Below, one piece after another: positions 8,279 through 30,668 of a stretch of DNA of 32,000 nt. This DNA comes from an uncultured Erysipelotrichaceae bacterium (GTDB lineage: Bacteria > Bacillota_I > Bacilli_A > Erysipelotrichales > Erysipelotrichaceae): the NCBI GenBank assembly GCA_942492995.1, contig OW818653.1, positions 150,001-182,000 on the forward strand, written 5' to 3'. The notes below the pieces were generated by a model. The model worked only from the letters and a program-made list of their open reading frames with translations, was not told the DNA's origin and did not search any database. The number at the start of each line of letters is the position of its first letter. The first letter of the stretch is position 1. The position numbers and the translations under genes are program-made.

Positions 8279-8317
8279 GTTTAGTATAAAACGCTAAATA
8301 GTTTAGTAAAACTAAAC
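8279..8317 (+). promoter_or_regulatory. Candidate operator pair in the 5' leader of the HTH-cupin regulator
   Basis: There is a perfect palindrome GTTTAGT-AAA-ACTAAAC at 8301-8317. An imperfect copy GTTTAG-N9-CTAAAT lies at 8279-8298. Both sit between P2 and the RBS. Confidence 0.4.
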
Positions 8318-8328
8318 AGAGGAAACTG

Positions 8329-8862: not shown

Positions 8863-8871
8863 GAGGCACAA

Positions 8872-9915: not shown

Positions 9916-9916
9916 T

Positions 9917-10768: not shown

Positions 10769-11562
10769 GCATTAAGAAACATAATTTAGCAAAATTCTTC
10801 ATGATGTTTGGAATTCTTGCCTTCTTCTATCTTCCAATCCTTAGTTTAATGATCTTCTCATTCAATGATTCAAGATCATTGACCTCATGGTCAGGTTTCT
10901 CACTTCAATGGTATAAAGCCTTGTTTGAGAATCGTGAGATGATGACGGCTATTACAACTACAATTACGATTGCGCTTATTTCAACATTTGTCGCAACAGT
11001 AATGGGAACGTTGGCGGCGATTGGTATTTCAAAATCACGTCGTTTAGTTAAAGAATTAGTCTTAAGTGTGAATAACTTCCCAATCTTAAATCCTGAAATC
11101 GTTACGGCAATTGGATTGATGTTGCTATATTCTTCATTGAATATTGAAAAAGGATTTATGACGATGTTACTAGCACATATTATATTTAGTACACCGTATG
11201 TCATATTAAGTGTATTACCGCGTTTAAGACGTTTGGATCCAGATATTGCGGAAGCCGCACTTGATTTAGGGGCAACTCCTCTTCAAGCGCTATGGAAGGT
11301 TATTGTGCCTATGATTACTCCGGGGATTGTCTCTGGTGCACTCATTGCGTTTACGATGTCCTTCGATGACTTTGTTATTTCTTACTTTGTAAGTGGTAAT
11401 GGCGTTAAGAATATCTCTATCCTAGTGTATACAATGTCAAAACGTATTAATCCTACAATTAATGCTTTATCAACGATTCTTGTCGTAATCATAACGATTG
11501 TATTACTCGTTGTTAATTTATATCCTTATATCGCTAAGAAAGAACTAAAGGAGGCAGAATGA
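10762..11562 (+). CDS. potC: Spermidine/putrescine ABC transporter permease
   Basis: The 266-aa polytopic product has an EAA loop (IAEAALDLGATPLQALWKVI.P). It overlaps both neighbouring genes. Confidence 0.9.
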   Translation: MVGIKKHNLAKFFMMFGILAFFYLPILSLMIFSFNDSRSLTSWSGFSLQWYKALFENREMMTAITTTITIALISTFVATVMGTLAAIGISKSRRLVKELVLSVNNFPILNPEIVTAIGLMLLYSSLNIEKGFMTMLLAHIIFSTPYVILSVLPRLRRLDPDIAEAALDLGATPLQALWKVIVPMITPGIVSGALIAFTMSFDDFVISYFVSGNGVKNISILVYTMSKRINPTINALSTILVVIITIVLLVVNLYPYIAKKELKEAE

Positions 11563-12593
11563 AAAAATTAAGTATGCTAATCCTTGTCCTAGCATTTATG
11601 CTAGCAGGATGCAACAGTGACACAAAAACCTTAAAGGTATTTAATTGGGGCGTGTATATGGACGCTACCTTGATTGATGAGTTTGAAGAAGAGTATAACG
11701 TTAGAGTTGTGTACGATGAATTTGATAGTAATGAATCCATGTATACAAAGCTAATGAGTGGTGAAAAATATGATGTAATCGTTCCTTCAGATTATATGGT
11801 TCAACGTTTAATCGAAGAAAATCTATTACAAAAGTTAGATAAAAAAGTTGTTAGTTTAGACGATGTTTTACCCAATGTATTGAATCAAAAATTTGATCCA
11901 AACAATGAATATAGTGCTCCATATTTCTGGGGCAATGTGGGTATTTTGTATGATACAACAAAAGTAGATACAAAAGATTTAGAAGAAGGTTGGAATATTT
12001 TATTAAATGAAAAATATAAAGGTGCGTTGTACTTTTATGATTCAGAACGCGATGCCTTTATGGTTGCGCTTAAAGCACTTGGTTATTCCGCAAATTCAAA
12101 AGTAGATTCACAACTTGATGAAGCATTTGAATGGTTAACCCAACTGAATACGACAATGGAACCGATTTATGTTACAGATGATGTTATTGATAACATGATT
12201 GCTGGTAATAAGTCGATTGCGGTAGTGTATTCAGGTGATGCGGCTTATATTGTAGATGAAAATGAAGATATGGCATTCTATGCGCCAGAAGAAGGCACAA
12301 ACCTTTGGATTGATAACATGGTTATTCCAGCGAATGCAGAAAATCCTGAATTAGCGAATGCTTGGATTGCGTTTATGTTAAGTGAAGATGCTCAATCACG
12401 TAATACGATTGAAGTTGGATATTCTACAGTACATAAAGCAGTGTGGGAATATATGATATCTGATGAAGGGGATTATGCTGGTAATGAAGCGTATGCAGTG
12501 CGTACGAATTATGCATCTGATGAATTGTTTAAATATGATGAAGAGCTAAAAGTAAAGATGTCAGATCTTTGGCTTAAAATTAAGGCTCAGTAA
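11559..12593 (+). CDS. potD: Spermidine/putrescine-binding lipoprotein, copy 1
   Basis: The 344-aa product has a signal peptide with an LAGC lipobox and PotD/PotF-like motifs (NWG.Y, YFWG..GI.Y, NLWID.M.IP). Confidence 0.88.
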   Translation: MKKLSMLILVLAFMLAGCNSDTKTLKVFNWGVYMDATLIDEFEEEYNVRVVYDEFDSNESMYTKLMSGEKYDVIVPSDYMVQRLIEENLLQKLDKKVVSLDDVLPNVLNQKFDPNNEYSAPYFWGNVGILYDTTKVDTKDLEEGWNILLNEKYKGALYFYDSERDAFMVALKALGYSANSKVDSQLDEAFEWLTQLNTTMEPIYVTDDVIDNMIAGNKSIAVVYSGDAAYIVDENEDMAFYAPEEGTNLWIDNMVIPANAENPELANAWIAFMLSEDAQSRNTIEVGYSTVHKAVWEYMISDEGDYAGNEAYAVRTNYASDELFKYDEELKVKMSDLWLKIKAQ

Positions 12594-12602
12594 GGAAAGA
12601 AA

Positions 12603-13646
12603 ATGAAAAAAATACTCTTAACATTAGTTGTTGCTTTACTCACATTGGCAGGTTGTTCTTCCAATGAACAAAAAGTATTAAAAGTTTATAATTGGGGTGC
12701 TTATATCGATGATACAGTCATTTCAGAATTTGAAGATATGTACGATGTAAGAGTTATTTATGATAACTATGATTCCAATGAATTGATGTACACAAAAATC
12801 CAAAGTGGAGAATACTATGATGTATTAGTTCCAACAGATCATATGGTTGAACGCTTAATTGCGGAAGATTTCTTACAACCAATCGATCTTACAAAGATTA
12901 CAAATCTATCAAACGTATATCCAGATTTACTAAATCGTCCATTTGATCCAAATAATACGTATAGTGTTCCTTATTTCTGGGGTAACATTGGTATTATCTA
13001 TAACAAAGAAACCGTTGATTTTGCTGATCTTGAAGCTGAAGGATGGAATATCTTAAAGAATCCTAAATATACTGATCGTATTTATATCTATGATTCAGCA
13101 CGTGATGCATTCATGGTAGCGCAAAAGGCTTTAGGTTATTCAGTAAATACAACAGATGAAGCAGAAATTGAAGCTGCATTTGAATGGTTAAAAGAAGTTA
13201 ATAATACAACTCGTCCAATCTATATCGATGAAACAATCATTGATAACATGATTACTGAACAAAAAGATATTGCAGTAGACTTCTCAGGTGATGCGGCATA
13301 TGTTATTTCACAAAATCCTAATATGTCATTCTATGTACCTAAAGAAGGTACAAATGTTTGGATGGATAGTATGATCATTCCTGCGAATGCTAAAGAAGTT
13401 GATTTAGCACACAAATGGATTAACTTCATGTTAGACAATGAAGTAGCGACTAAGAACACAATCTATGTTGGCTATACTTCACCAGTTATTGCGGCGTTTG
13501 AGGCTGTAACAGGTGCTGGTGGCGATTATGAAGGCAATATTGCATATGGTCCTCGAATGGATAATCCTTTAGATGAAGAGTATAAATACAATGATGCGCT
13601 TAAAGAAGTCTTAACAGATAAGTGGACGCGCGTTAAAGCACAATAG
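12603..13646 (+). CDS. potD: Spermidine/putrescine-binding lipoprotein, copy 2 (tandem paralog)
   Basis: The 347-aa product has an LAGC lipobox. It is colinear with copy 1 along the full length, and by eye more than half of the residues are identical. Confidence 0.88.
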   Translation: MKKILLTLVVALLTLAGCSSNEQKVLKVYNWGAYIDDTVISEFEDMYDVRVIYDNYDSNELMYTKIQSGEYYDVLVPTDHMVERLIAEDFLQPIDLTKITNLSNVYPDLLNRPFDPNNTYSVPYFWGNIGIIYNKETVDFADLEAEGWNILKNPKYTDRIYIYDSARDAFMVAQKALGYSVNTTDEAEIEAAFEWLKEVNNTTRPIYIDETIIDNMITEQKDIAVDFSGDAAYVISQNPNMSFYVPKEGTNVWMDSMIIPANAKEVDLAHKWINFMLDNEVATKNTIYVGYTSPVIAAFEAVTGAGGDYEGNIAYGPRMDNPLDEEYKYNDALKEVLTDKWTRVKAQ

Positions 13647-13654
13647 TAATTTAG

Positions 13655-13683
13655 AGTGGTTAAATTAAACCACTTTTTTTTTA
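13655..13683 (+). terminator. Intrinsic terminator of the pot operon
   Basis: AGTGGTT (13655-13661), a 6-nt loop, AACCACT (13668-13674), then a run of about ten T residues. Confidence 0.8.
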
Positions 13684-13817
13684 TTTAAATATTTGTAAAA
13701 TAGTCGTTTTCTTTTGGAGAAAATGAAGTATAATATGTGTCGTAACAAATGCAAATATCGCAAAAATTACGGAATAAAAAGTAAATATTCGATTTTAAAA
13801 AAAAGTTTAGTTTCGTC

Positions 13818-13845
13818 TTGCAATTTAATCATAGTTTGTTATAAT
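13818..13845 (+). promoter_or_regulatory. Promoter of the tRNA cluster (extended -10)
   Basis: TTGCAA (13818-13823), a 16-nt spacer, then TGtTATAAT (13837-13845). The first tRNA starts about 20 nt downstream. Confidence 0.55.
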
Positions 13846-13864
13846 AAAAAGGCACCGTTTACAC

Positions 13865-13938
13865 GGTTCCTTAGCCAAGTGGTAAGGCAATAGACTGCAA
13901 CTCTGTGACCGTCGGTTCAAATCCGACAGGAACCTCCA
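13865..13938 (+). tRNA. tRNA-Cys (GCA)
   Basis: A cloverleaf folds by hand: acceptor GGTTCCT/AGGAACC, anticodon stem ATAGA/TCTGT, loop CTGCAAC, T-arm GTCGG-TTCAAAT-CCGAC. The CCA end is encoded. Confidence 0.9.
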
Positions 13939-13940
13939 AT

Positions 13941-14027
13941 GGGGATGTGGCGGAATAGGCAGACGCAACGGACTTAAAATCCGTTGATGGTAACATCGTG
14001 TGGGTTCAAGTCCCACCATCCCCACCA
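13941..14027 (+). tRNA. tRNA-Leu (TAA), class II with a long variable arm
   Basis: Acceptor GGGGATG/CATCCCC, anticodon stem ACGGA/TCCGT, loop CTTAAAA, long variable arm, T-arm GTGGG-TTCAAGT-CCCAC. The CCA end is encoded. Confidence 0.9.
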
Positions 14028-14072
14028 TTGCATGTTTCAGAGAAGAATATTTGGTGCCTTATATTAGACTAT

Positions 14073-14149
14073 GCGCCTATAGCTCAATTGGATAGAGCGT
14101 TTGACTACGGATCAAAAGGTTGTGGGTTCAACTCCTGCTAGGCGCGCCA
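14073..14149 (+). tRNA. tRNA-Arg (ACG)
   Basis: Acceptor GCGCCTA/TAGGCGC, anticodon stem TTTGA/TCAAA, loop CTACGGA. The T-stem GTGGG/CCTGC contains two adjacent G-T wobble pairs. The CCA end is encoded. Confidence 0.85.
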
Positions 14150-14160
14150 AAAAAATGACT

Positions 14161-14237
14161 CGGGATGTAGCACAGCTTGGTAGTGCACTTGATTTGGGAT
14201 CAAGGGGTCGCAGGTTCAAATCCTGTCATCCCGACCA
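14161..14237 (+). tRNA. tRNA-Pro (TGG)
   Basis: Acceptor CGGGATG/CATCCCG, anticodon stem CTTGA/TCAAG, loop TTTGGGA. The CCA end is encoded. Confidence 0.9.
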
Positions 14238-14254
14238 TGCAATTTTTATTTAAC

Positions 14255-14331
14255 GGCGGGATAGCTCAGTTGGCTAGAGCAATCGGTTCATACCCGGTCG
14301 GTCGTGAGTTCGAGTCTCACTCCCGCTACCA
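14255..14331 (+). tRNA. tRNA-Met (CAT), elongator type
   Basis: The anticodon loop is TTCATAC and the acceptor GGCGGGA/TCCCGCT has a G1-U72 pair. As I recall, Bacillus elongator tRNA-Met has the same G1-U72 pair and ends in GCTACCA. The CCA end is encoded. Confidence 0.8.
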
Positions 14332-14336
14332 ATTTT

Positions 14337-14413
14337 GGACCCTTAGCTCAGTTGGTTAGAGCTGCCGGCTCATAACCGGTAGGTCGTAGGTTCGAGTCCT
14401 ACAGGGTCCACCA
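14337..14413 (+). tRNA. tRNA-Ile2 (CAT, presumably lysidine-modified)
   Basis: GGACCCTTAGCTCAGTTGGTTAGAGC...CTCATAA...AGGGTCCACCA closely resembles ileX-type tRNAs. It lacks the C1-A72 mismatch and the three consecutive G-C anticodon-stem pairs that mark initiator tRNAs. Confidence 0.7.
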
Positions 14414-14421
14414 GTTTCATT

Positions 14422-14510
14422 GGAGGAATACCCAAGCGGTTTAAGGGACTAGTCTTGAAAACTAGCAGATGTGAGAGCATGCGTGGGTTCGAATCCCACT
14501 TCCTCCGCCA
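14422..14510 (+). tRNA. tRNA-Ser (TGA), class II
   Basis: Acceptor GGAGGAA/TTCCTCC, anticodon stem CTAGT/ACTAG, loop CTTGAAA, long variable arm. The CCA end is encoded. Confidence 0.9.
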
Positions 14511-14539
14511 TCACATATTTCTAAAATTTATATATACAT

Positions 14540-14616
<77 letters not shown>

Positions 14617-14619
14617 ATT

Positions 14620-14695
<76 letters not shown>

Positions 14696-14707
14696 TTTAT
14701 AAACGAT

Positions 14708-14729
14708 CCTGTTGAAGACAGGTTTTTTT
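14708..14729 (+). terminator. Intrinsic terminator of the tRNA cluster
   Basis: CCTGT (14708-14712), a 5-nt loop, ACAGG (14718-14722), then seven T residues. Confidence 0.65.
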
Positions 14730-14768
14730 ATGCTTTATTGAAGAATACGGTATAATATAGACATATGA

Positions 14769-16229
<1,461 letters not shown>

Positions 16230-16245: not shown

Positions 16246-16968
16246 ATGGATTATTTCTTTGCGTCTGAGCAACAAATCCCAGAAAGTATGCGATTAAGCT
16301 TATATGGTCGTACTCATTTACTTTGGTTAGGTGCGATTGTCGTGTTTATCGTGTTATTGAGTATTTTTTATACTCGTTTACGTCCTTATCAAAAGAAACA
16401 ATTCAAGAAGAGTTTCGCGTTGTTTATTATTTTCTTTGAATTATTACGTCAAATTATCTATCTCGTATTAGGTCGATATGAACTTGGATTACTTCCGTTA
16501 CATCTTTGTGGTTTAACGGAAGTATTAATCTTATTTCATGCCTTTACGAAGAATAAAGTAGTTAAAGAGAGTTTATATGCGATGGGATTAATTGGTGCAC
16601 TCATGGCACTTCTATTCGCGGATTGGTTAGTTTATCCTGTATTGCATTTCCAATCAATCCATAGCTTTGTGATGCATGGATTACTCATGGGGTATATCGT
16701 TATGTTAATTTGGAGTCAAGAACTTAAACCAAATGAAAAGTTATTGCCTCAAGTATTTATCTTATTCTTCTTAATATGTTTTGGATTGTATTACTTTAAT
16801 AAACAATATGGTACAAACTTCTTCTTTCTTAATTATCCATCTCCAGGTTCTCCTTTAGTTATTTTTGAACAATGGGTAGGAAATCCTGGGTATATTGGGT
16901 TAACGGTTGTATTGTTGTTTATTGTTTGGTTCATTTTATATTTACCATGGCGTTTAAGCCGTAAATAA
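16246..16968 (+). CDS. Polytopic membrane protein (YwaF/TIGR02206-like; family name tentative)
   Basis: The 240-aa product has about 7 hydrophobic helices. A GGGGG-type RBS lies upstream and the gene starts 16 nt after the bglA stop. Confidence 0.6.
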   Translation: MDYFFASEQQIPESMRLSLYGRTHLLWLGAIVVFIVLLSIFYTRLRPYQKKQFKKSFALFIIFFELLRQIIYLVLGRYELGLLPLHLCGLTEVLILFHAFTKNKVVKESLYAMGLIGALMALLFADWLVYPVLHFQSIHSFVMHGLLMGYIVMLIWSQELKPNEKLLPQVFILFFLICFGLYYFNKQYGTNFFFLNYPSPGSPLVIFEQWVGNPGYIGLTVVLLFIVWFILYLPWRLSRK

Positions 16969-19179: not shown

Positions 19180-19202
19180 TAAAAAAGTACGGTTTACGTA
19201 CT
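19180..19202 (-). terminator. Intrinsic terminator of the TetR gene
   Basis: AGTACG (19186-19191) pairs with CGTACT (19197-19202). The A-run at 19180-19186 reads as a T-tract on the minus strand. Confidence 0.6.
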
Positions 19203-19813
19203 TACTGATTAGAATATTGTTGGATATAGATAGGTATACTTAGCGCAAAGAAATTTACGAATGTATCTTTAAATACTTCATCGTTGATATCCAATACACC
19301 TAATGAATATTGTAAGGCAACGCCATCAAGTGCTGCGACAAGTATTGCGGCTATACGCTTTTGACAAGCTTGGTTTTCTACCCCAAACGCATAGAAATAG
19401 AGCTTTGCGACTTTATCAATAATTTCATTATAATCTAAGCGATACTTTTCTTTTATACGTCCACCTTTAGTAATTGCGTATGCAGTTAACAGGATTAGTA
19501 ATCGTTGTTCGATTTCTTTTGACATACGATCTCGAACATTCGTACTAATTTCTTCAAACATTTCTTGATTAGTCTTAAGTTTACTGTCCTTATCTTTTTC
19601 AGATAATTTATGTACGAAATAAGCGGATTCTTTGACTGCGTCATAATACAAATCATCTTTGTTTTTATAATGATAATAAATAGCGCCAGTCGTAAGCCCA
19701 GCATTTGCCGCAATCTCACGCATACTCGCTTTTTCGAAACCTTGGGTTGCGAACACATGAAGTGCCGCATCAAGGAGTTGTTTCTTTTTGTCGATAATTA
19801 GTTCTTCTATCAT
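19202..19813 (-). CDS. TetR/AcrR-family transcriptional regulator
   Basis: The 203-aa product has an N-terminal TetR HTH (FEKASMREIAANAGLTTGAIYYHYKNKDDLY). It is divergent from the hypB operon. Confidence 0.9.
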   Translation of the reverse strand: MIEELIIDKKKQLLDAALHVFATQGFEKASMREIAANAGLTTGAIYYHYKNKDDLYYDAVKESAYFVHKLSEKDKDSKLKTNQEMFEEISTNVRDRMSKEIEQRLLILLTAYAITKGGRIKEKYRLDYNEIIDKVAKLYFYAFGVENQACQKRIAAILVAALDGVALQYSLGVLDINDEVFKDTFVNFFALSIPIYIQQYSNQ

Positions 19814-19829
19814 ATTTAACCTCTTTCAA

Positions 19830-19847
19830 AGTGTAACATATAACACT
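19830..19847. promoter_or_regulatory. Imperfect palindrome O1 upstream of the TetR gene
   Basis: AGTGTAACATATAACACT has matching outer arms AGTGT/ACACT. It shares the 9-mer TGTAACATA with O2 and lies 17 nt from the tetR ATG. Confidence 0.4.
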
Positions 19848-19885
19848 ATTTTATTAAAATATTTACTTGTTTATTAAATCACATA

Positions 19886-19914
19886 TTGTAACATAACAAA
19901 TGTTATGTTAATAT
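19886..19914 (+). promoter_or_regulatory. hypB-operon promoter with embedded perfect palindromic operator O2
   Basis: TTGTAA (19886-19891), a 17-nt spacer, then TAATAT (19909-19914). The palindrome TAACATAACA-AA-TGTTATGTTA (19889-19910) fills the spacer and touches both hexamers. Confidence 0.55.
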
Positions 19915-19952
19915 TATCACAATTAGAGTGATAAGACTCAGAAAGAGTGATT

Positions 19953-20621
19953 ATGACGCAATTTAGAATTCTAGAGATTAAAGAAAGTGTATTTGAGAAT
20001 AATAATAAACAAGCAGATTTATTACGTGAATCATTAAAGAAAGATAAACGATTTTTATTGAATTTAATGTCCTCACCAGGTTCTGGTAAAACGACTACTT
20101 TAACGCAAACAATTAATCGATTAAAAGATGAATTTAGCATTGGCGTCATGGAAGCGGATATCGATTCAGATGTAGATGCACATACAATAGCGAAGACTGG
20201 TGTGAAAGTAATTCAACTTCATACCGGTGGGATGTGTCATTTAGATGCGGATATGACCAAACAAGGTCTAGACGGATTGGGTATTGATGAATGTGATTTG
20301 GTTATCTTAGAAAATGTTGGAAATTTGGTATGCCCTGCAGAGTTTGATACAGGTGCGAGTAAGAATGCGATGATTCTAAGTGTTCCAGAAGGTGATGATA
20401 AGCCGTTAAAGTATCCACTAATGTTCTCAATTTGTCAGGTTCTATTAATTAATAAAATCGACGTATTAAATGTGTTTGATTTTGATTTAGAACTTTGTAT
20501 ATCAAGAGTTAAAAAGATTAATCCTAATATAAAAATAATCCCTATATCAGCTAGAACGGGTGTTGGAATGGATGAATTTGCGGAATGGTTACGACACGAA
20601 GTGAGAACCTGGAAGGAATAA
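19953..20621 (+). CDS. hypB: Nickel-insertion GTPase HypB
   Basis: The product has P-loop SPGSGKTT, the G-domain metal-binding motif GGMCHLDA, ENVGNLVCPAEFD and NKID. I prefer the ATG at 19953 (RBS GAAAGAG 5 nt upstream) to the GTG at 19947 used in the track. There is no N-terminal His-rich stretch. Confidence 0.88.
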   Translation: MTQFRILEIKESVFENNNKQADLLRESLKKDKRFLLNLMSSPGSGKTTTLTQTINRLKDEFSIGVMEADIDSDVDAHTIAKTGVKVIQLHTGGMCHLDADMTKQGLDGLGIDECDLVILENVGNLVCPAEFDTGASKNAMILSVPEGDDKPLKYPLMFSICQVLLINKIDVLNVFDFDLELCISRVKKINPNIKIIPISARTGVGMDEFAEWLRHEVRTWKE

Positions 20622-20622
20622 T

Positions 20623-23316
20623 ATGGATAATAAACAAGTAAAGTTAAAAGTATTAGAGTTTGCGAATAAAGTAAGTAATAAGAAGATGGGTTCTAAAGGC
20701 GCAATTACCGCAAGTGATCCACGTTATTACATTATGGAACCTGTTGTAAGTGATGAAATGGCTGAAGTCGCATTAGTAATGGAATTTAGAAAAGCACTTA
20801 GTGCAGAAGAATTAGCGAAACGTTGTGGAAAATCTGTTGAGTTAACAGAGAAGCTTTGTTGGGAACTTGCGATGGCAGGGGTATGTTTCGTTAATAAAAA
20901 AGAAGGTGTAGATAAATATTGGTATGACACATGGGTTCCAGGCATTATGGAAATGATGTGTAATAACTTAGATAATGTTCGTAAATACCCTCAGATAGCA
21001 CGTGCATTTGAAGAGTATGGACGTGTTGTTGGACCGATGAGTGTTGGTAAATTTCCAGTTGGGGTTGGCGTTATGCGTGTTATCCCAATTGAAACTGCAA
21101 TTCAAGGTGAAACGCGTCGTGCATCGTATGAAGAAGTTTCAAAATACTTAAATGATGCGCATATTTTCTCAGTGTCAGATTGTTCATGTCGTACATCACG
21201 TGAGGCAATTGGCGAAGGCTGTGGGCATTTAAAAGAAGACATGTGTATTCAAATGGATCATGCGGCGGAATACTATATTCGTACAGGTCGTGGTAAAGAA
21301 ATTACACGTGAAGAAGCACTCGAAATCATTAAACGCGCAGAAGAAAATGGTTTAATGCATCAAATACCGAATCTTGATGGTTCAGGTAAAACCCATGCGA
21401 TTTGTAACTGTTGCGGATGTTCATGTTATGCGATGCGTATTGCGTCAATGTTCAAGAACTCAGACATGGTACGTTCTAATTACGTTGCGCACGTAGATCC
21501 TGAGAAGTGTGTTGCGTGTGGTGAATGTGTTGAGAATTGTCCAACCAATGCGGCTAAATTAGGTCAAAAACTTTACACAATCAATCCAATAAAACAAGCT
21601 AAGGTTGAAACACCGCGTGATATGAAGTGGGGACCTGAGAAGTACAATCCTGATTATCGTACAAATCGTAAGGATGTTGTGGATAGTGGTACAAGTCCAT
21701 GTAAGACGGAATGTCCTGCGCATATTTCAGTTCAAGGGTATATTCGTTTAGCATCACTTGGTAAATATAAAGAAGCGTTAGAACTTATTAAGCATGAAAA
21801 TCCATTCCCAGCGGTATGCGGTCGTATTTGCCCACGTAAATGTGAATCCGCATGTACACGTTGTGAGATTGATAAAGCTGTCGCAATTGATGAAATTAAG
21901 AAATACATTGCGGACCAAGATTTAAGTTTAGAAAATCGTTATGTCCCTAAACAAAAACATAATTATGGTAAGAAGATTGCGATTATCGGGGCAGGTCCTG
22001 CTGGATTATCATGTGCATTCTATCTTGCGATTGATGGATATAAAGTAACGGTATTTGAGAAACAAGAAAAGCTTGGGGGAATGTTAACTCTAGGTATTCC
22101 AAATTATCGATTAGAGAAGGATGTTGTGAATGCGGAAATTGATATTCTAAGAGAACTTGGGGTTGAATTTAAAACAGGTATTGAAGTTGGTAAAGATGTT
22201 AGCTTAGATGAATTACGTAACCAAGAGTATAAGGCATTCTATGTCGCTATTGGAGCACAAAAAGGTCGTAAGTTGAACATCGAAGGGGAAGAACACCCTG
22301 ATGTATTATCTGGTGTTGATTTCTTAAGAAATACGAATTTAGGTAAATCAAATAAAATCGAAGGTAATGTCGTTGTCATTGGTGGCGGTAATGTCGCAAT
22401 CGATGTGGCGCGTACAGCAGTTCGTCTTGGTGCAAGTAAAGTAGATATGGTTTGTTTAGAGAGTCGTGAAACGATGCCAGCTCTTGAAGAAGAAATTCAT
22501 GAGGCATTGGATGAGAAAGTAAATCTCAATAATTCTTGGGGTCCTAAACGCATCGTAATTGAAAATAATAAAGTAGTTGGGGTTGAGTTTAAGAAATGTA
22601 TCTCAGTATTGGATGAAAATAAACGTTTTAATCCTCAATATGATGAAACAAATACCATCATAATCCCAGCTTCAACTGTACTAATCTCAGTTGGACAAGC
22701 GATTGATTGGGGTAATTTATTAGATGGGACTGAAGTTGAATTTAATCCAAATCGTACATTGAGTGCGGATGGATTTACGTACCAAACGAATCATAAAGAT
22801 ATCTTCACGGGTGGTGATTGTTATACTGGACCACGCTTTGCGATTGATGCGATTGCGGCGGGTAAACAAGCTGCGATTTCAATTCATCGATTCGTACAAC
22901 CTGGACAAAGTTTAGTGTTAGGTCGTGATCGTCGTGAATTTGTGGCGATTGATAAAGAGAATTTAGATTTACAAGGCTATGATCGTATACCTCGCGAAAG
23001 TGTTAAACATAACTATAAAACATCGGGTTCTGAAGCATTTAAAGATGGACGTTTAACCTTTAGCGAAGAACAAATGAAGAAAGAAACGGAAAGATGTTTA
23101 GGGTGTGGGGCAACCGTTGTCGATGAGTACATGTGCGTTGGATGTGGACAATGTACAACGAAGTGTAAGTTTGATGCGATTAAACTTGTGCGTACCTATG
23201 ATTCAAAAGGTGCAGGGTATGAAGAGTTAAAACCAATTGTACTTAAACAAATCGTTAAGCGTGAAATTAAGATTGTCGCTAAAAATATAAAGAACGCTTT
23301 TTCTAAAGAAGATTAA
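20623..23316 (+). CDS. Multidomain Fe-S flavoprotein: Cys-rich N-terminal module, ferredoxin motif, GltD-like NAD(P)H/FAD oxidoreductase core and C-terminal ferredoxin motif
   Basis: The 897-aa product has these elements in order. N-terminal cysteines: C187-x-C189...C200...C208 and C261-x-CC-x-C-x-C268. First ferredoxin motif: C296xxCxxCxxxCP. GltD-type cysteines: 360-414 (SPC..EC, AVCGRICP..CE.AC). Dinucleotide folds: IAIIGAGPAG (455-460) and VIGGGNVA (587-592). C-terminal ferredoxin motif: C825xxC...C838xxCxxCxxxC848. The gene starts 1 nt after the hypB stop. Confidence 0.85.
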   Translation: MDNKQVKLKVLEFANKVSNKKMGSKGAITASDPRYYIMEPVVSDEMAEVALVMEFRKALSAEELAKRCGKSVELTEKLCWELAMAGVCFVNKKEGVDKYWYDTWVPGIMEMMCNNLDNVRKYPQIARAFEEYGRVVGPMSVGKFPVGVGVMRVIPIETAIQGETRRASYEEVSKYLNDAHIFSVSDCSCRTSREAIGEGCGHLKEDMCIQMDHAAEYYIRTGRGKEITREEALEIIKRAEENGLMHQIPNLDGSGKTHAICNCCGCSCYAMRIASMFKNSDMVRSNYVAHVDPEKCVACGECVENCPTNAAKLGQKLYTINPIKQAKVETPRDMKWGPEKYNPDYRTNRKDVVDSGTSPCKTECPAHISVQGYIRLASLGKYKEALELIKHENPFPAVCGRICPRKCESACTRCEIDKAVAIDEIKKYIADQDLSLENRYVPKQKHNYGKKIAIIGAGPAGLSCAFYLAIDGYKVTVFEKQEKLGGMLTLGIPNYRLEKDVVNAEIDILRELGVEFKTGIEVGKDVSLDELRNQEYKAFYVAIGAQKGRKLNIEGEEHPDVLSGVDFLRNTNLGKSNKIEGNVVVIGGGNVAIDVARTAVRLGASKVDMVCLESRETMPALEEEIHEALDEKVNLNNSWGPKRIVIENNKVVGVEFKKCISVLDENKRFNPQYDETNTIIIPASTVLISVGQAIDWGNLLDGTEVEFNPNRTLSADGFTYQTNHKDIFTGGDCYTGPRFAIDAIAAGKQAAISIHRFVQPGQSLVLGRDRREFVAIDKENLDLQGYDRIPRESVKHNYKTSGSEAFKDGRLTFSEEQMKKETERCLGCGATVVDEYMCVGCGQCTTKCKFDAIKLVRTYDSKGAGYEELKPIVLKQIVKREIKIVAKNIKNAFSKED

Positions 23317-23318
23317 TT

Positions 23319-23660
23319 ATGCATGAATTAGGCGTAGTAATAGAGGTTGTTAAAGCGTTGGATCGAGTAGTCAAAGAAAATAATCTCAAAGAAGTTGAAA
23401 CGATTGTATTACAGATTGGTGAAATATCGTCGATGATGCCAAAGTACATCGAGGATTGTTTCGAAGTAGCGGTAGATGGAACACAGTTCGAGAAGACAAA
23501 ATTGAGAATTGAAATATTGACTGCGACTGCTTTATGTCGACCATGTCAGAAAGTATTTAAATTAGTAGAAAATGATGGATTGTGTGAATGTTGTAAAGGG
23601 AATGATTGGGAACTCTTAAGTGGGAAAGAGTTCCTAATTAAAGAAATAGTAGCGTGTTAA
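23319..23660 (+). CDS. hypA: Nickel metallochaperone HypA
   Basis: The 113-aa product has the N-terminal Ni-binding MHE motif and Zn-site cysteines C73xxC76...C89xCC92. It starts 2 nt after the upstream stop. Confidence 0.88.
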   Translation: MHELGVVIEVVKALDRVVKENNLKEVETIVLQIGEISSMMPKYIEDCFEVAVDGTQFEKTKLRIEILTATALCRPCQKVFKLVENDGLCECCKGNDWELLSGKEFLIKEIVAC

Positions 23661-23669
23661 GGAGAAGTT

Positions 23670-24368
23670 ATGAATGAACTAACCTATTTATTATCTACTG
23701 CACTCTTTATCGGGACAGTTCATACATTAATTGGTGTGGACCATTACTTACCGTTTGTCGTGTTATCTAAGGCTAATAATTGGTCTATAAAGAAAACATG
23801 TGGAATTGTGTTTGTATGTGGTATTGGGCATGTTTTAAGTTCAGTGATTCTTGGATTTATCGGTTTAGCAATAAGTTCAAGTTTAATGACACTTGTTGGT
23901 ATTGAAGATATACGAGGAACACTCGCAACGTATTTTATCATTGCGTTTGGATTGGGTTATACCGTTTATGCTTTACATAACTTATATAAGAATCGAACGC
24001 ATAAACATATGATTGATGGACATGAACTGGTCCATGATCATCATGATACGAAGAGTATTGAAGAACATGTTCATGATAAGAAGAAAACAAATGTCGTATG
24101 GGGTTTATTCATTTTATTTGTTTTAGGTCCATGTGAACCTTTGATTCCTTTATTAATGTATCCAGCTTCAACACTTAATGTGTTTGCGCTAATTAGTGTT
24201 ACCTTGGTGTTTTCAATTAGCACAATAAGTGTCATGTTGGGACTTACGGTATTAGGCATAAAAGGTTTGGATTTCATCAAGATTAAGCATTTAGAAAAGT
24301 ATGGAGAGACACTAGCAGGTTTGGCAATTACTGTTTGCGGTGTTCTCATGATTACCTTAGGGATATAG
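23670..24368 (+). CDS. Putative nickel/cobalt transporter (RcnA/NicO-like topology with a HupE/UreJ-like HxxxGxDH motif)
   Basis: The 232-aa product has about 6 TM helices. Helix 1 carries VHTLIGVDH. A cytoplasmic-type loop (about residues 103-136) contains 9 His. GPCEP follows in the next helix, comparable to the IPCP in RcnA. Confidence 0.6.
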   Translation: MNELTYLLSTALFIGTVHTLIGVDHYLPFVVLSKANNWSIKKTCGIVFVCGIGHVLSSVILGFIGLAISSSLMTLVGIEDIRGTLATYFIIAFGLGYTVYALHNLYKNRTHKHMIDGHELVHDHHDTKSIEEHVHDKKKTNVVWGLFILFVLGPCEPLIPLLMYPASTLNVFALISVTLVFSISTISVMLGLTVLGIKGLDFIKIKHLEKYGETLAGLAITVCGVLMITLGI

Positions 24369-24391
24369 ACAAAAGTCTATAGGAGGAATGC

Positions 24392-25378
24392 ATGTTTGTA
24401 TTTAACACATTAGAAGGTGGGAGCTTTCTAGCAGCGTTTAGTATGTTACTGGTTGTATTAGTTAGTTTGTTTGTATTCAATGAAGTAACACGTAGATTTA
24501 AATGGGCAGGTTTTGTGAGTTTTGTGATTCTACCTGTTGTACTAACTGTAATCTGGTTTACGGTTATGAAAGAAACAACCTATACCGATTGGTTCCACCT
24601 TGCAAAAGTATATTCTGCGACGGCAGGATCAATTGGTTTCTGGTTAATTCGTCATTATGAAAAGAAGGATAAATCTGGGAATGTTATATGGAGACTTGCG
24701 ACAAATAAAGTCGCATTATGTTTCCCACCATTAATTTTAGCAATTAATATCCTTGAAGCTGTAGCGCGTGATATAGAAGTAGGATCTGCATTCTGGATGA
24801 TTAATTCAGGTGCGATTGAAGGCGAAATCATGGGTGTATTGGGTGGTCCATGGAATTACATGAATGCACTTGCTGGAATCTTGAATATTATTACGATTAC
24901 AGGTTGGTTTGGCATCGTAATTCGTAGACAAACACAAAAAGATAAGAGTCGTGATATGTTATGGCCAGATATGTTGTGGTTCTGGATAATTGCGTATGAT
25001 GTTTGGAACTTTGTGTACACGTATAACTGTATTCCATCACATTCTTGGTATGCAGGATTAGCGTTATTAGTTGCGCCAACATTATGTGCATTTACTTTAG
25101 GCAAAGGCGCATGGCTTCAACATCGTGCCGCAACTCTTGCGATTTGGTGTATGTTTGCTCAAACGTTCCCATTATTTCAGGATACGGGTAAATACATGGT
25201 TGCGTCGAGTTATAATCCTACCATCTATACCATTCTTGGGGCTTTATCCTTAGCGGTTAATTTAGCAGTATTTGTTTATATGATACTTAAATACACTAAG
25301 ACTAAACGTAATCCATATAAGAGTGAATTGTATACAGATTTAAGTGAATACAAAGCCATTAAACTCCTTGCAGAGTAA
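24392..25378 (+). CDS. Polytopic membrane protein of unknown function, last gene of the hyp-containing operon
   Basis: The 328-aa product has about 8-9 hydrophobic helices and is rich in Trp and aromatic residues. A strong RBS (TAGGAGGAA) lies upstream. I cannot place it in a named family from memory. Confidence 0.7.
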   Translation: MFVFNTLEGGSFLAAFSMLLVVLVSLFVFNEVTRRFKWAGFVSFVILPVVLTVIWFTVMKETTYTDWFHLAKVYSATAGSIGFWLIRHYEKKDKSGNVIWRLATNKVALCFPPLILAINILEAVARDIEVGSAFWMINSGAIEGEIMGVLGGPWNYMNALAGILNIITITGWFGIVIRRQTQKDKSRDMLWPDMLWFWIIAYDVWNFVYTYNCIPSHSWYAGLALLVAPTLCAFTLGKGAWLQHRAATLAIWCMFAQTFPLFQDTGKYMVASSYNPTIYTILGALSLAVNLAVFVYMILKYTKTKRNPYKSELYTDLSEYKAIKLLAE

Positions 25379-25381
25379 AAG

Positions 25382-25402
25382 AAAACGGACAATGTCCGTT
25401 TT
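25382..25402. terminator. Bidirectional terminator shared by the hyp operon and pepF
   Basis: AAAACGGAC (25382-25390), loop AAT, GTCCGTTTT (25394-25402). The A and T tracts serve both strands. Confidence 0.75.
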
Positions 25403-27502: not shown

Positions 27503-28960
27503 ATGAAAGATTTAAAGATGGATCAATCGCGCGCTCCAATAGCAGAAGCTATGGAGACACATGGATACAAGCGAACTGTCGCATTCGATGTACCTGGCCA
27601 TAAACAAGGAAAAGGGAATCCGATGTTGCGGGAATTTTTAGGTGATAAATGTTTACGTTATGATGTTAACTCACGCAAAGATTTAGATAATTTATGTCAT
27701 CCAAGTGGGGTAATTTTAGAAGCTGAAGAATTAGCTGCTGATGCGTTTCATGCGGGGCATGCGTTCTTTATGTTAAATGGTACGACTTCTGCTGTACAAA
27801 CAATGGTATTAGCTGTAGCACGTGCGAATGAAAAGATTATCTTGCCTCGTAATGTACATCGTTCAGTTATCTATGCATTAATCTTAACTGGAGCGATTCC
27901 GGTTTATGTTAATCCAGATGTTCATCCGAAATATGGAATACCTCTAGGTATGAAATTATCGAATGTTGAAAAGGCTATCTTAGAAAATCCAGATGCGAAA
28001 GCGATCTTTGTGAATAATCCTACGTATTATGGAATATGTAGTAATCTTAAGGGAATTGTAGAATTAGCGCATAAACATGGTATGCAAGTATGTGCAGATG
28101 AGGCGCATGGTACACATTTTTACTTTAAATCAGGTTTACCAATTAGCGCTATGGATGCTGGTGCTGATATGGCGGCAGTTAGTATGCACAAAACAGGCGG
28201 AAGTTTAACGCAGAGTTCTATCTTACTAATCAAAGATAAAGCTCGTATGGCTGAAATTCGTCAAGTAATTAATTTAACCCAAACAACGAGTGGCTCTTAT
28301 TTATTGTTGTCGTCACTTGATATATCAAGAAAATATTTAGCCTTACAAGGTGAAAGTGTTTTTGAACAAGTTTTAAAACTTACAAAATATGCGCGTGAAG
28401 AAATATCGGATATAGAAGGGTATTATGCATTCTCTGAAGATATTGTTAATCATGATAGTGTCTATGCATTTGATCCGACCAAACTAACCATTCATACGCG
28501 TGGAATTGGTTTAGCTGGTACAGAGTTATATGATATCTTACGTGATGAGTATGATATTCAAGTTGAATTAGGGGATTTAGGGAATATCTTAGCGATTATT
28601 GGGATTGGGGATTCAAAAGCTCAAATCGAACGATTAATTTCTGCTTTACAGGATATTAAAGATACCTATGGTACTGAAGATAAATCGATGATTCCATTTG
28701 ACTACATTAATCCTGTGGTTAAAGTATCACCTCAAACTGCGTATTACTCAAAAATGAAACCTGTTCGTTTCACTGAATCACTAAATCGTATCAGTGGAGA
28801 ATCAATTATGGTCTATCCTCCAGGTATTCCTATTATTGCGCCAGGTGAAGAAATTACGCAGGTTGCGATTGATTATATTATGTATGCGAAGGAAGTTGGA
28901 AGTTTCTTGACAGGTATTGAAGATGTGAACATTGAATATATCAATGTCTTGGAGGATTAA
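27503..28960 (+). CDS. speA: Arginine decarboxylase (Orn/Lys/Arg decarboxylase family, Bacillus SpeA type)
   Basis: The 485-aa product has F..PGHK.G, the PLP-lysine motif SMHKTGGSLTQSS and VYPPGIPI..PGE. It appears colinear with what I recall of B. subtilis SpeA. Substrate is inferred from the linked agmatinase and spermidine synthase genes. Confidence 0.82.
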   Translation: MKDLKMDQSRAPIAEAMETHGYKRTVAFDVPGHKQGKGNPMLREFLGDKCLRYDVNSRKDLDNLCHPSGVILEAEELAADAFHAGHAFFMLNGTTSAVQTMVLAVARANEKIILPRNVHRSVIYALILTGAIPVYVNPDVHPKYGIPLGMKLSNVEKAILENPDAKAIFVNNPTYYGICSNLKGIVELAHKHGMQVCADEAHGTHFYFKSGLPISAMDAGADMAAVSMHKTGGSLTQSSILLIKDKARMAEIRQVINLTQTTSGSYLLLSSLDISRKYLALQGESVFEQVLKLTKYAREEISDIEGYYAFSEDIVNHDSVYAFDPTKLTIHTRGIGLAGTELYDILRDEYDIQVELGDLGNILAIIGIGDSKAQIERLISALQDIKDTYGTEDKSMIPFDYINPVVKVSPQTAYYSKMKPVRFTESLNRISGESIMVYPPGIPIIAPGEEITQVAIDYIMYAKEVGSFLTGIEDVNIEYINVLED

Positions 28961-29815
28961 ATGGAATATTGGTTTACTGAAGAACATAGTGATAATGTTC
29001 GTTTCTCGATTCGTACAGATCGTCAATTAGCGAGTGTTACGACTGATATTCAACGTATTGATGTATTCGATACGCCTGAATTTGGTAAAATGCTTGTTTT
29101 AGATGGTAATGTGACGATGACCGAAAAAGATGAGTTTATTTATCATGATATGTTAGTTCATGTGCCTATGGCAGTTAATCCAAATATTAAAAAAGTGTTA
29201 GTTATTGGGGCAGGAGACGGTGGTACAATTCGTGAATTGACGCGTTATCCTAGAATTGAACAGATTGATATGGTTGAAATTGATGAAGAAGTTGTTAAGG
29301 TTTGTCGAGAACATTTTACAAGTACTTCGTATGCTTTAAATGATCCTAGAGTTACCATTTATTATGAAGATGGATTGAAGTTTGTTCGTTCGAATAAGAA
29401 AGCGTATGATTTAGTTTTGGTTGATTCAACTGATCCAATTGGACCTGGTGAGGGCTTATTTACACGTGAATTTTATGGGAATTGTTATAATGCGCTGAAG
29501 GATGATGGAATTCTAGTCAATCAACATGAGAGTCCTTATTATGACTTTAATGTTAAGGCGATTCAGAAATCACATAAAAGAATTAAAGAAAAGTTTCCGA
29601 TTGTTAGAATGTATCAAGCACATATTCCTACGTTCTCTTCAGGATATTGGTTGTTTGGTTTCGCGAGTAAGAAGTATGATCCGGTTAAGGATTTGAAAGA
29701 AGATGAGTTTAATCAGTTAGGCTTAAAAACGCGGTATTATAATACCGAATTACATAAAGGCTGTTTTGCCTTACCAAATTACGTAAAGGAGCTATTAGAT
29801 TATGACATTAAATAA
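28961..29815 (+). CDS. speE: Spermidine synthase
   Basis: The 284-aa product has WFTE, VLVIGAGDGGT.RE and DSTDPIGPGE.LF motifs. It starts directly after the speA stop. Confidence 0.93.
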   Translation: MEYWFTEEHSDNVRFSIRTDRQLASVTTDIQRIDVFDTPEFGKMLVLDGNVTMTEKDEFIYHDMLVHVPMAVNPNIKKVLVIGAGDGGTIRELTRYPRIEQIDMVEIDEEVVKVCREHFTSTSYALNDPRVTIYYEDGLKFVRSNKKAYDLVLVDSTDPIGPGEGLFTREFYGNCYNALKDDGILVNQHESPYYDFNVKAIQKSHKRIKEKFPIVRMYQAHIPTFSSGYWLFGFASKKYDPVKDLKEDEFNQLGLKTRYYNTELHKGCFALPNYVKELLDYDIK

Positions 29816-30668
29816 GAATGTTCAAACATTTGTTGGTTGTGTAAGTGAATACGATGATGCGGAGATTGTCTTATTTGGGGCACCGTTTGATTCCACAACT
29901 TCATATCGTCCAGGAACGCGTTTTGCGAGTTCGGCGATTCGTACTGAATCCATTGGCTTAGAATTATATAGCCCATATTCAGATTATGGATTAGAGGCGT
30001 GTAGTGTATGTGATAGTGGAGACCTAATTCTCCCATTCGGAAGTGCAGAACGTGCGTTAGAAGCGATTTATGAGCGTGCTAAGGTCATTGTAAAGGATAA
30101 GAAGATTCCTTTTATGATTGGTGGCGAACATACTGTAACCTATGGAAGTGTTCATGCAGTATTTGAAGAACACCCTGATTTACATATTATTCATTTTGAT
30201 GCACATACTGATTTAAGAGATACTTACTATGGCGAATATTATTCACATGCGACTGTGTTAAAACGTTGTTACGACTTGGTTGGAGATCACAAAATTTTCC
30301 ACTTTGGTTTACGTTCTGGAGCTCGTGAAGAATTCGTGTTTGCACAAGAACATAGTTATATCGAAAAGAGTTCATGTGATACATTAGTTGATATCTTGCC
30401 GCAATTACAAGGGAAACCAGTGTATATTACGATCGATCTAGATGTATTAGACCCTTCCAATTTCCCGGGTACAGGTACACCTGAAGCAGGTGGAATTAAC
30501 TTTACACAATTATTAAATGCAGTACTCGCAATGAGTCATTTAAATGTAGTTGGAATAGATGTGAATGAATTATCACCAATATACGATCAATCAGGCGCTA
30601 GTACAGCACTTGCTTGTAAGTTAACACGTGAAATTCTTATCGCAGTTTCAAAAAATAGAGCTAAATAA
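29802..30668 (+). CDS. speB: Agmatinase
   Basis: The 288-aa ureohydrolase-fold product has GGEH, HFDAHTDL and TIDLDVLDP motifs. It overlaps speE by 14 nt. Confidence 0.92.
   Translation: MTLNKNVQTFVGCVSEYDDAEIVLFGAPFDSTTSYRPGTRFASSAIRTESIGLELYSPYSDYGLEACSVCDSGDLILPFGSAERALEAIYERAKVIVKDKKIPFMIGGEHTVTYGSVHAVFEEHPDLHIIHFDAHTDLRDTYYGEYYSHATVLKRCYDLVGDHKIFHFGLRSGAREEFVFAQEHSYIEKSSCDTLVDILPQLQGKPVYITIDLDVLDPSNFPGTGTPEAGGINFTQLLNAVLAMSHLNVVGIDVNELSPIYDQSGASTALACKLTREILIAVSKNRAK

Follow-up and report, generated by a model that had tools for sequence, protein, structure and literature searches.

Background

HypA and HypB are the textbook maturases of hydrogenase and urease, and in the maturation of hydrogenase HypA is the protein which docks on the client. 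We describe here an operon in which both genes surround an iron-sulfur flavoprotein of 897 amino acids (aa). It comes from an uncultured Erysipelotrichaceae bacterium (assembly GCA_942492995.1, contig OW818653.1, positions 150,001–182,000). This stretch of 32,000 nt will be called the window; all coordinates are relative to its first letter. Our reading, with a probability of about 0.7, is that the operon is repressed by TetR and serves an NAD(P)H-linked Fe-S flavoenzyme from IsrA clade 9, which is matured by HypA and HypB and therefore probably contains nickel.

The closest described system is the isr operon in Acetobacterium wieringae ISORED-2 (Kronen et al. 2023, mSystems, PMC10134865). IsrA is an oxidoreductase of 901 aa; its N-terminal region of about 270 aa is unannotated and has a six-Cys site on two CxC motifs. 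The operon has the gene order isrA-hypA-hypB-ferredoxin-hypA and is induced by isoprene, with a log fold change of 6–10. The strain has no [NiFe]-hydrogenase and no hypCDEF, and its other nickel (Ni) enzymes have their own maturases; Kronen et al. proposed that HypA and HypB insert Ni into IsrA. Among 988 homologs of clade 9 the frequency of neighbours is 0.73 for HypA, 0.56 for HypB, 0.40 for DUF5692 and 0.21 for TetR; in the corpus searched, no other paper mentions DUF5692. The identity of IsrA with its Acetobacterium homologs is 47–49%. The Acetobacterium strains in which the homolog has a TetR and a hypothetical protein as neighbours did not reduce isoprene in experiment, and the combination of a second hypA and a 350-aa ferredoxin carrying the N-terminal domain is confined to two isoprene-reducing strains (PMC10134865). 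Pelotomaculum is the subject of two 2026 preprints with transcript data alone: hypA and hypB are up 373- and 585-fold with isoprene.

The hypothesis of a client of HypA and HypB and the neighbourhood statistics were published in 2023 by Kronen et al. and are not new. What is new beyond that work is the recruitment of metal importers, the presence of an operator which is co-conserved with its TetR, the insertion found in the ferredoxin domain of the enzyme and a link with a polyunsaturated fatty-acid isomerase (PAI).

Organization of the operon

Five genes follow each other on the plus strand: hypB (19953–20621), the 897-aa Fe-S flavoprotein (20623–23316), hypA (23319–23660), a His-rich permease with six transmembrane segments (23670–24368) and the integral membrane protein DUF5692 (24392–25378), which is the other conserved member of the module besides hypB, the enzyme and hypA. 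They are separated by 1, 2, 9 and 23 nt. HypB scores 252.8 bits with TIGR00073 (cutoff 121.2), HypA 98.2 bits with PF01155 (cutoff 28.9), the permease 30.3 bits with PF13386 (DsbD_2; cutoff 24.9) and DUF5692 381 bits with PF18948; the flavoprotein, our putative Ni client and reductase, has the domains Fer4, Fer4_20 and Pyr_redox_2. A TetR-family repressor gene is divergent (19202–19813, minus strand; PF00440, 59 bits), and its protein reaches no NCBIfam equivalog cutoff in the profile search. The operon ends in a bidirectional intrinsic terminator (25382–25402) which it has in common with the convergent pepF; it has a 9-bp stem with 4 G-C pairs and was scored on both strands. For hypB the likelier start is the ATG at 19953, 5 nt past the sequence AGAAAGAG, which resembles a ribosome binding site; the start given by the open reading frame (ORF) lister, a GTG at 19947, falls within it.

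A preliminary description of this region, made from the sequence, had placed the six genes at these positions with the same gaps, and both the ORF list and the profile searches reproduce them. It had also reported a palindromic operator in the promoter, a bidirectional terminator and a divergent TetR, with which the inverted repeat, the terminator scoring and PF00440 agree. Its statement that hydrogenase, urease and carbon monoxide dehydrogenase (CODH) are absent holds for the window: profile searches of the 32 kb found neither these nor any other known Ni enzyme, the rest of the genome being outside the search. The motifs which it had attributed to HypB (P-loop and GxCH) and to HypA (MHE and a four-Cys Zn site) read as claimed.

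Conservation of the module

The association of the enzyme with hypA and hypB is found in many other genomes. In a collection of species-representative genomes, one for each species, at least 546 matches encode a relative of the enzyme. We have surveyed the best 80 of these loci, with an enzyme identity of 69–99%, by tblastn and de novo clustering of the flanking ORFs. Most of them belong to Clostridia, Erysipelotrichaceae, Lachnospiraceae and Peptostreptococcaceae; Chloroflexi, Spirochaetes and a deltaproteobacterial metagenome-assembled genome (MAG) are also present. The enzyme closest to ours, 99% identical, is found in the Erysipelotrichaceae MAG SMAG_U955 (L007, DASSDQ01). Complete genomes which have the module include those of Terrisporobacter mayombei (CP101637), Clostridium sp. 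HCS.1 (CP170704) and Haloimpatiens (CP172402). In 71 of the 80 loci hypB lies at most 300 bp upstream on the same strand, and two of the misses are contig ends. A hypA gene is found at most 1.2 kb downstream in 76 loci, 72 loci have both genes, and DUF5692 is present within 2 kb in 56. The identity of HypB across the survey is 66–96%. No other enzyme, hydrogenase, urease, CODH or hypCDEF recurs within ±7 kb of the 80 loci; their flanks are otherwise unrelated.

The arrangement extends beyond close relatives. In Subdoligranulum variabile the order GntR | hypB-X-hypA-DUF5692, where X is the enzyme, is kept at 49% enzyme identity, with a HypB identity of 73%. In a divergent and abundant clade (1353 cluster members) hypA starts 13 bp after the enzyme, while hypB and DUF5692 are gone. 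Adjacency of hypA thus outlasts that of hypB and DUF5692, which makes HypA the tightest partner and fits its docking on a client. The enzyme has over 8000 homologs; the best 120 have about 890–915 aa at an identity of at least 71%. The plasmid collection contains only one full-length homolog.

The preliminary description had tied the enzyme to HypA and HypB and had considered it probably their client. This is strongly supported by the counts for hypB and hypA and by their persistence at 49% identity. It had also suggested a survey of neighbourhoods and held that orthologs usually without both genes would speak against the idea; 72 of 80 have both. The feature is real and non-random and was correctly interpreted there; the module of IsrA clade 9 with HypA and HypB is still putative.

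A different explanation would be that HypA and HypB serve a canonical Ni enzyme elsewhere in the genome, the 897-aa protein being a co-transcribed NAD(P)H electron-transfer partner. Its core, similar to GltD and NfnB, is indeed a typical electron-transfer module, Pelotomaculum species with IsrA homologs have [NiFe]-hydrogenases (preprint), and our search for Ni enzymes covered the window, not the whole genome. On the other hand, the synteny is near-universal in 80 species in which no hydrogenase, urease, CODH or hypCDEF recurs nearby, and hypA remains beside the enzyme even where hypB is lost. A. wieringae ISORED-2 also has these hyp genes without [NiFe]-hydrogenase or hypCDEF, and separate maturases exist for its other Ni enzymes (PMC10134865). 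We consider a client located elsewhere improbable.

Two variations of the module may be added. In L066 (10001–16307) and L073 (10001–16064) there are tandem full-length paralogs of the reductase, in the order hypB-X1-hypA-X2, which suggests substrate diversification within the locus. In S. variabile (L095, HypB 7250–7906, enzyme 8001–10688) the identities with our proteins are 73% for HypB, 49% for the enzyme and 38% for HypA, an unusual gradient for a set of chaperones and client.

HypA and HypB

Both accessory proteins keep the residues expected for handling Ni. In the translation of hypB we read a GSGKT P-loop, GGMCH, NVGNLVCPAEFD and NKID: the CH...C Ni site is retained, and there is no His-rich or CxxCGC N-terminal extension. 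Its score is about twice the HypB equivalog cutoff of TIGR00073. HypA has the Ni site M1-H2-E3 and the Zn-site cysteines C73xxC76 and C89xC91C92; judged by its profile scores, which are discussed below, it is a divergent HypA. P-loop, CH...C, MHE and Zn-site cysteines are equally features of the HypA and HypB of Escherichia coli [NiFe]-hydrogenase and Helicobacter pylori urease, and the H. pylori pair is a precedent for a client which is not a hydrogenase. The difference lies in the rest of the system. The large subunit of hydrogenase, hypCDEF and urease are absent from the 32-kb window and do not recur within ±7 kb of the 80 loci, so that in the part searched the set required for the maturation of [NiFe]-hydrogenase is incomplete; the presumptive client here is a flavo-Fe-S reductase. 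Loading of Ni by HypB and HypA is suggested by the retained Ni-binding motifs together with the near-universal synteny.

Architecture of the enzyme

The domains of the 897-aa protein are Fer4 (aa 290–310), Fer4_20 (357–433), Pyr_redox_2 (451–747) and a group of C-terminal cysteines (825–848); all features described in this section are on the plus strand. The N-terminal domain (aa 1–290, at 20623–21492) starts with a probable winged helix and continues with an unclassified Cys-rich core. These 290 aa approximately have no match in Pfam or NCBIfam, and a search of both collections with the domain and its stand-alone homologs gave generic ferredoxin matches alone. An AlphaFold2 model obtained from an alignment of 44 sequences, stand-alone homologs included, has a predicted local distance difference test (pLDDT) score of 79, with 85–97 in the core; a model from 12 close homologs reached only 56 and is unusable. 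The better model has no match in the PDB at E ≤ 1e-3 with Foldseek; its weak matches (E ≥ 4e-3) are winged-helix proteins.

The Cys-rich core (aa 187–268, at 21181–21426) is a candidate catalytic or Ni-Fe-S site. Its residues are C187xC189, R190, C200-G-H202, C208, H246 and C261xC263C264xC266xC268, which do not vary in 25 close homologs. In a set of 84 divergent homologs, C187, C189 and C208 are conserved in 100% of the sequences, R190, H246, C261, C263 and C268 in 93–96%, with 94–95% for these last three cysteines, and C200 in 85%, while C264, C266 and H202 are variable. The histidine of G-C200-G-H202 is present in every member of the alignment with about 900 aa and the CNCCxCxC motif, and it varies in the stand-alone forms. 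From these positions the core corresponds to the Cys6 site, "cluster V", of Kronen et al. (PMC10134865).

The Cys-rich domain is followed by a ferredoxin with two [4Fe-4S] clusters which is split in two. The first half, C296xxC299xxC302xxxC306P (21490–21552), is matched by PF00037 at aa 290–310 and is collinear with P0184, a stand-alone homolog; the second, C838xxC841xxC844xxxC848 together with C825 and C828 (23095–23166), has invariant cysteines and is also placed by the P0184 alignment. Residues 55–295 of P0184 align with aa 60–314 of our protein, and 302–327 with aa 831–856 (E = 2e-6). P0184 aligns to both sides of the NAD(P)H/FAD/2x[4Fe-4S] module of about 516 aa, which therefore is an insertion between the ferredoxin halves. 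In it we find a part similar to GltD and NfnB (21691–22863), formed by Fer4_20 with two [4Fe-4S] clusters (PF14691, 82 bits) and an FAD/NAD(P)H domain (PF07992, 111 bits).

The relatives of aa 355–760 approximately in the PDB are 9BOV, 8OH5, NfnA 9N5U, 4YLF and 5JCA. This part resembles the modules of NfnB, GltD and dihydropyrimidine dehydrogenase (4YLF, 5JCA, 9N5U, 9BOV, 1GT8) with E values from 1e-52 to 1e-99, and it should supply the input of electrons from NAD(P)H to the Fe-S clusters. The score with the GltD/NfnB subfamily NF009410 is 473.3 bits, under the cutoff of 516: the module is common to both, the protein is not a member of the subfamily. It differs from NfnB and GltD by the insertion of the module in a ferredoxin domain, by the extra Cys-rich domain and by the linkage with HypA and HypB. 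There is also a likeness to CODH and acetyl-CoA synthase (ACS), matured by CooC/AcsF, where a dedicated NTPase brings Ni into a Cys-rich Fe-S environment; Kronen et al. noted that the Cys6 site resembles the A-cluster of ACS (PMC10134865). However there is no similarity of sequence or fold with CODH/ACS, and HypA and HypB take here the place of CooC.

An exhaustive search with aa 1–290 gave 1823 representative clusters with two main architectures: fusions of about 900 aa and stand-alone proteins of about 350–390 aa, in which the N-terminal domain is followed by a complete 2x[4Fe-4S] ferredoxin. The idea that this domain is a general client of HypA is not supported, as neither HypA nor HypB is present in the four stand-alone contexts; by gene context it is the fused clade which is linked with the chaperones. 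In a Spirochaetes MAG (L092, 2637–6083) a CdhC-like gene of 260 aa and a CooC-like ATPase are followed 0.8 kb downstream by a stand-alone ferredoxin with the N-domain; the two genes adjoin others of BcrAD/HGD-D type (2-hydroxyacyl-CoA dehydratase or benzoyl-CoA reductase). It is a single case which hints at another link of the domain with Ni.

Relation to the IsrA family

By its sequence features the 897-aa protein is a member of clade 9 of IsrA, a putative isoprene reductase family. The assignment was made through the domain order, the Cys6 site and the neighbours described in PMC10134865. Our protein has about 900 aa, with the order N-domain, Fer4, Fer4_20, FAD/NAD(P) and C-terminal Fer4, as in IsrA. 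It has a six-Cys site with two CxC motifs (C187xC189, C208, C261xC263, C268). Finally, hypA and hypB are directly adjacent, and both are found in the large majority of the related loci as given above; TetR and DUF5692 are recurrent neighbours of clade 9 as well.

The two operons are not equal. The five-gene isr arrangement, with its second hypA and its 350-aa N-domain ferredoxin, is absent from the window, which has a single hypA and adds TetR, the His-rich permease and DUF5692. In this respect the window resembles the "cluster II" loci of Acetobacterium, whose hosts do not reduce isoprene. We have considered whether the operon might nevertheless encode a true isoprene reductase like that of ISORED-2, with which it agrees in family, architecture and linkage with HypA and HypB. 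This appears very improbable: the two additional genes of the isoprene reducers are missing, Acetobacterium strains with neighbourhoods of TetR type did not reduce isoprene (PMC10134865), and at about 70% identity the subfamily spans four phyla (Bacillota, Chloroflexi, Spirochaetes and a deltaproteobacterial MAG), gut bacteria included. Such a distribution argues for a commoner substrate than isoprene. Most likely the enzyme of the window is not itself an isoprene reductase.

Metal importers and DUF5692

The permease family has the invariant motifs H18-x5-D24-H25, CGxGH and GPCEP, with a variable His-rich loop. No NCBIfam model matched the permease, only the generic PF13386, and its annotations in the source databases are in conflict (TauE/SafE and NicO). 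As a member of the module it is found only in Erysipelotrichaceae, in 6 of the 80 loci and in L089. It resembles the UreH, HupE-UreJ and NicO permeases, which are small polytopic proteins with H-x5-DH in the first transmembrane segment, a His-rich loop and adjacency to Ni enzyme genes. UreH-type permeases have been assigned to Ni through such adjacency, and one protein of this family is connected with Co (PMC2667541). Our permease matches the family and is adjacent to hypA both here and in L089; from these similarities it is a putative UreH-like Ni(II)/Co(II) importer, probably for Ni.

Homologs of the permease are also found outside of the module. In Treponema contigs a homolog with 54% identity has a Prismane/CODH-type gene and two CooC-like ATPases as neighbours; in an Oscillospiraceae contig the neighbours of another one are an ArsR-type regulator and a P-type ATPase. 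In two Treponema metagenome contigs (L085, 1–6711; L086, 99–5246) the homolog is translationally coupled to a DUF3786 gene and lies near an S-methyltransferase: this is a second Ni enzyme context for the permease family.

Other lineages have different importers. In five Clostridium and Lachnospiraceae loci DUF5692 is followed by an energy-coupling factor (ECF) importer formed by CbiM-PDGLE, CbiQ and an ABC ATPase; curated models name this importer a cobalt transporter. An ECF S-component follows hypA in five other loci. The Ni/Co importer which has joined the module thus differs from lineage to lineage, which provides an independent link with metal. A related observation concerns L041, L048, L051, L062 and L076, which carry a PAI homolog: the S-component (PF12822) and a class I S-adenosylmethionine (SAM) methyltransferase come after the reductase or hypA, at about 13050–14330. 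In L048 and L051 the ORFs detected do not include hypA.

DUF5692 is a polytopic protein with invariant Trp, Tyr, Asn, Arg, Asp and Glu, and its conservation shows no His/Cys motif of metal type. A role as Ni importer is unlikely for this reason and by its coexistence with UreH-like or CbiMQ importers. Since dedicated metal importers are present and a metal motif is lacking, we read DUF5692 as a membrane protein which may handle the substrate. Paraclostridium bifermentans (L057) has two paralogs, at 7280–8281 and 12703–13638, one of them divergent and upstream, the other placed after the reductase and before hypA; Terrisporobacter and Romboutsia relatives show this arrangement as well.

Evidence against a nickel client

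Several observations weigh against our reading. HypA is under all NCBIfam equivalog cutoffs (72.5 bits with TIGR00100, cutoff 88.1). The 80 loci are the closest relatives, with at least 69% identity, so that their high frequencies describe this subclade only. The negative result on Ni enzymes is valid for the 32-kb window, and a distal hydrogenase, urease or CODH in the source genome would lie outside the search. The importers, judged from their families, are not assignable to Ni rather than Co. HypA and HypB are found near stand-alone homologs of the Cys-rich domain in none of four contexts, even if the core Cys site is present: for this reason the site may be an ordinary Fe-S site, with Ni elsewhere in the protein or absent. 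Finally, the literature up to 2026 contains no purification or biochemistry of any member of the family, so that its Ni is putative.

Some of these points would also agree with a repurposing of HypA and HypB, which might handle another metal (Co, Zn or Fe) or assist Fe-S or protein assembly, the enzyme not being a Ni enzyme. The low score of HypA, the cobalt annotation of the ECF importer, the UreH-family member tied to Co (PMC2667541) and the Cys site of homologs without nearby HypA and HypB are all compatible with it. However HypB passes its equivalog cutoff twofold, the Ni sites CH...C and MHE and the Zn-site cysteines are retained, and a permease homolog accompanies CODH-type and CooC-like genes. 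We judge that such a change of function has little probability, and maintain that the enzyme is probably loaded with Ni.

Promoter and regulators

The promoter of the operon (19886–19914, plus strand) has its -35 box TTGTAA at 19886–19891 and its -10 box TAATAT at 19909–19914; a promoter scanner proposed as alternative GTAACA-18-TATTAT at 19888–19917. An operator is embedded in it. Its core, AACATAAC-N4-GTTATGTT at 19890–19909, fills the 17-nt spacer between the two boxes, and the full inverted repeat is TAACATAACA/TGTTATGTTA at 19889–19910. This operator is unique in the window, where 0.07 matches are expected by chance. The TetR_N helix-turn-helix (HTH) of the regulator, its divergent gene and the palindrome which overlaps the promoter are those of a TetR repressor and its operator.

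Operator and TetR are co-conserved. The operator block is invariant in 9 orthologous promoters, whose mean identity in the surrounding sequence is 59%. The exact operator is found once in each of 11 out of 94 loci, C. sporogenes included: they are the ten survey loci with a TetR at least 60% identical to ours, plus L089, which has a divergent TetR in the equivalent position. Chloroflexi loci with a TetR of 31–32% identity have a different palindrome. In 34 loci the divergent regulator is instead a GntR with ligand domains of FCD/FadR_C type. The preliminary description had suggested induction by an organic substrate, which fits both the TetR matched to its operator in 11 loci and the GntR with FCD/FadR_C in 34, as these are types of sensor for organic ligands. 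There is also a second, weaker palindrome, AAGTGT-N10-ACACT, at 19828–19850, beside the start of tetR. It is common only to the closest loci, L005–L007, and may be either an autoregulatory site or due to chance.

A possible substrate

Some neighbours of the module point to fatty acids. In 8 of the 80 loci hypB or DUF5692 is immediately preceded, on its upstream side, by a co-oriented gene for an FAD protein of about 415 aa; these loci belong to Tissierella, Vallitalea, Natronincolaceae and several Clostridium. The protein aligns end to end with PDB 2B9W (E = 1e-57), which is the PAI of Propionibacterium acnes, an enzyme which makes conjugated linoleic acid (CLA) (PMC13003489). The A. woodii homolog adjoins an oleate hydratase (PMC10134865). 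Furthermore, the module is present in C. sporogenes (L027) and in P. bifermentans (L057). Reviews (PMC12254105, PMC13365329) attribute to these two species the conversion of linoleate to CLA and then to vaccenate, after Verhulst 1985, and to C. sporogenes a membrane-bound isomerase, after Peng 2007.

The PAI homologs upstream and the presence of the module in two species reported to hydrogenate linoleate suggest that the preferred class of substrates may be conjugated polyunsaturated fatty acids. IsrA, too, is credited with turning a conjugated diene into a monoene, and a CLA reductase would do the same chemistry; the 34 loci with a GntR ligand domain matching FCD and FadR_C also back a fatty acid. 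Tentatively, and with more doubt than confidence, we propose from these comparisons that the highly conserved subfamily of the window could be the long-sought Ni-dependent reductase of bacterial polyunsaturated fatty-acid biohydrogenation, from the CLA diene to the monoene (vaccenic acid), and DUF5692 a membrane linoleate isomerase or fatty-acid transporter.

Other facts count against fatty acids as substrate. There is no PAI homolog in the window, and no convincing lipid genes flank the module in C. sporogenes or P. bifermentans. The purified Butyrivibrio CLA reductase of the older literature is reportedly unlike the 897-aa protein. The link of the module with linoleate biohydrogenation, that is with PAI and with the clostridial CLA reductase and membrane isomerase, is one of gene context alone. 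A literature search found no paper which connects biohydrogenation with hypB or with a family of IsrA type, and the 2025–2026 reviews describe the clostridial enzymes of biohydrogenation without gene names.

Proposed mechanism

The operon might work as follows. TetR would bind AACATAAC-N4-GTTATGTT and would be released by a ligand, presumably a hydrophobic organic compound. The His-rich permease would then import Ni, with which HypB, a GTPase, and HypA would load the enzyme. Electrons would pass from NAD(P)H to FAD, then to the two [4Fe-4S] clusters of the GltD-like module, to the split 2x[4Fe-4S] ferredoxin and finally to the Cys-rich site of the N-terminal domain. The order of the domains is observed in the protein; the electron path is what we infer from it, following the model of Kronen et al. 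By analogy with the reduction of isoprene to methylbutene, the bond reduced at the Cys-rich site would be a C=C bond, unactivated and probably conjugated, in an organic substrate. DUF5692 could handle this compound at the membrane, taking it up or isomerizing it beforehand.

Other features of the window

The remaining genes of the window are of housekeeping type: glycolysis and sugar genes, a polyamine ABC transporter, nine tRNAs, RimO, PepF and polyamine synthesis. The nine tRNAs form an array on the plus strand (13865–14692) which explains a local GC spike of 0.455 at 14001–15000. Blocks related to polyamines flank the operon on both sides. The first one (8329–13646) has an HTH-cupin regulator and a PotABC-like ABC transporter whose two solute-binding proteins are paralogs encoded in tandem (11559–12593 and 12603–13646); the second (27503–30668) has an Orn/Lys/Arg decarboxylase, a spermidine synthase and an arginase of agmatinase type. 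A bacterial member of the TMEM164 family (16246–16968; PF14808, 145 bits) comes directly after a GH1 glycosidase. At 1719–4197 we find a stand-alone phosphate propanoyltransferase of PduL type (PTAC), with no microcompartment genes close by, followed by a radical SAM protein of 625 aa (Radical_SAM_N and DUF3362).

Significance

The known nickel enzymes form a short list. A flavo-Fe-S reductase matured by HypA and HypB, if true, would add a new class to it and a new way to reduce unactivated C=C bonds. The operon of the window is compact and includes a putative Ni permease as well as a defined operator for TetR; it is therefore convenient for heterologous expression and for screening the ligand of the regulator. 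If the substrates are indeed fatty acids, genes could be named for a step of lipid biohydrogenation which affects the trans-fat and CLA content of ruminant products and the lipid metabolism of the gut. Relatives of the enzyme are found in at least 546 species-representative genomes, among them gut Clostridia, Erysipelotrichaceae, Oscillospiraceae and MAGs of Chloroflexi and Spirochaetes. The family would help to explain the presence of hyp genes and Ni importers in organisms without hydrogenase.

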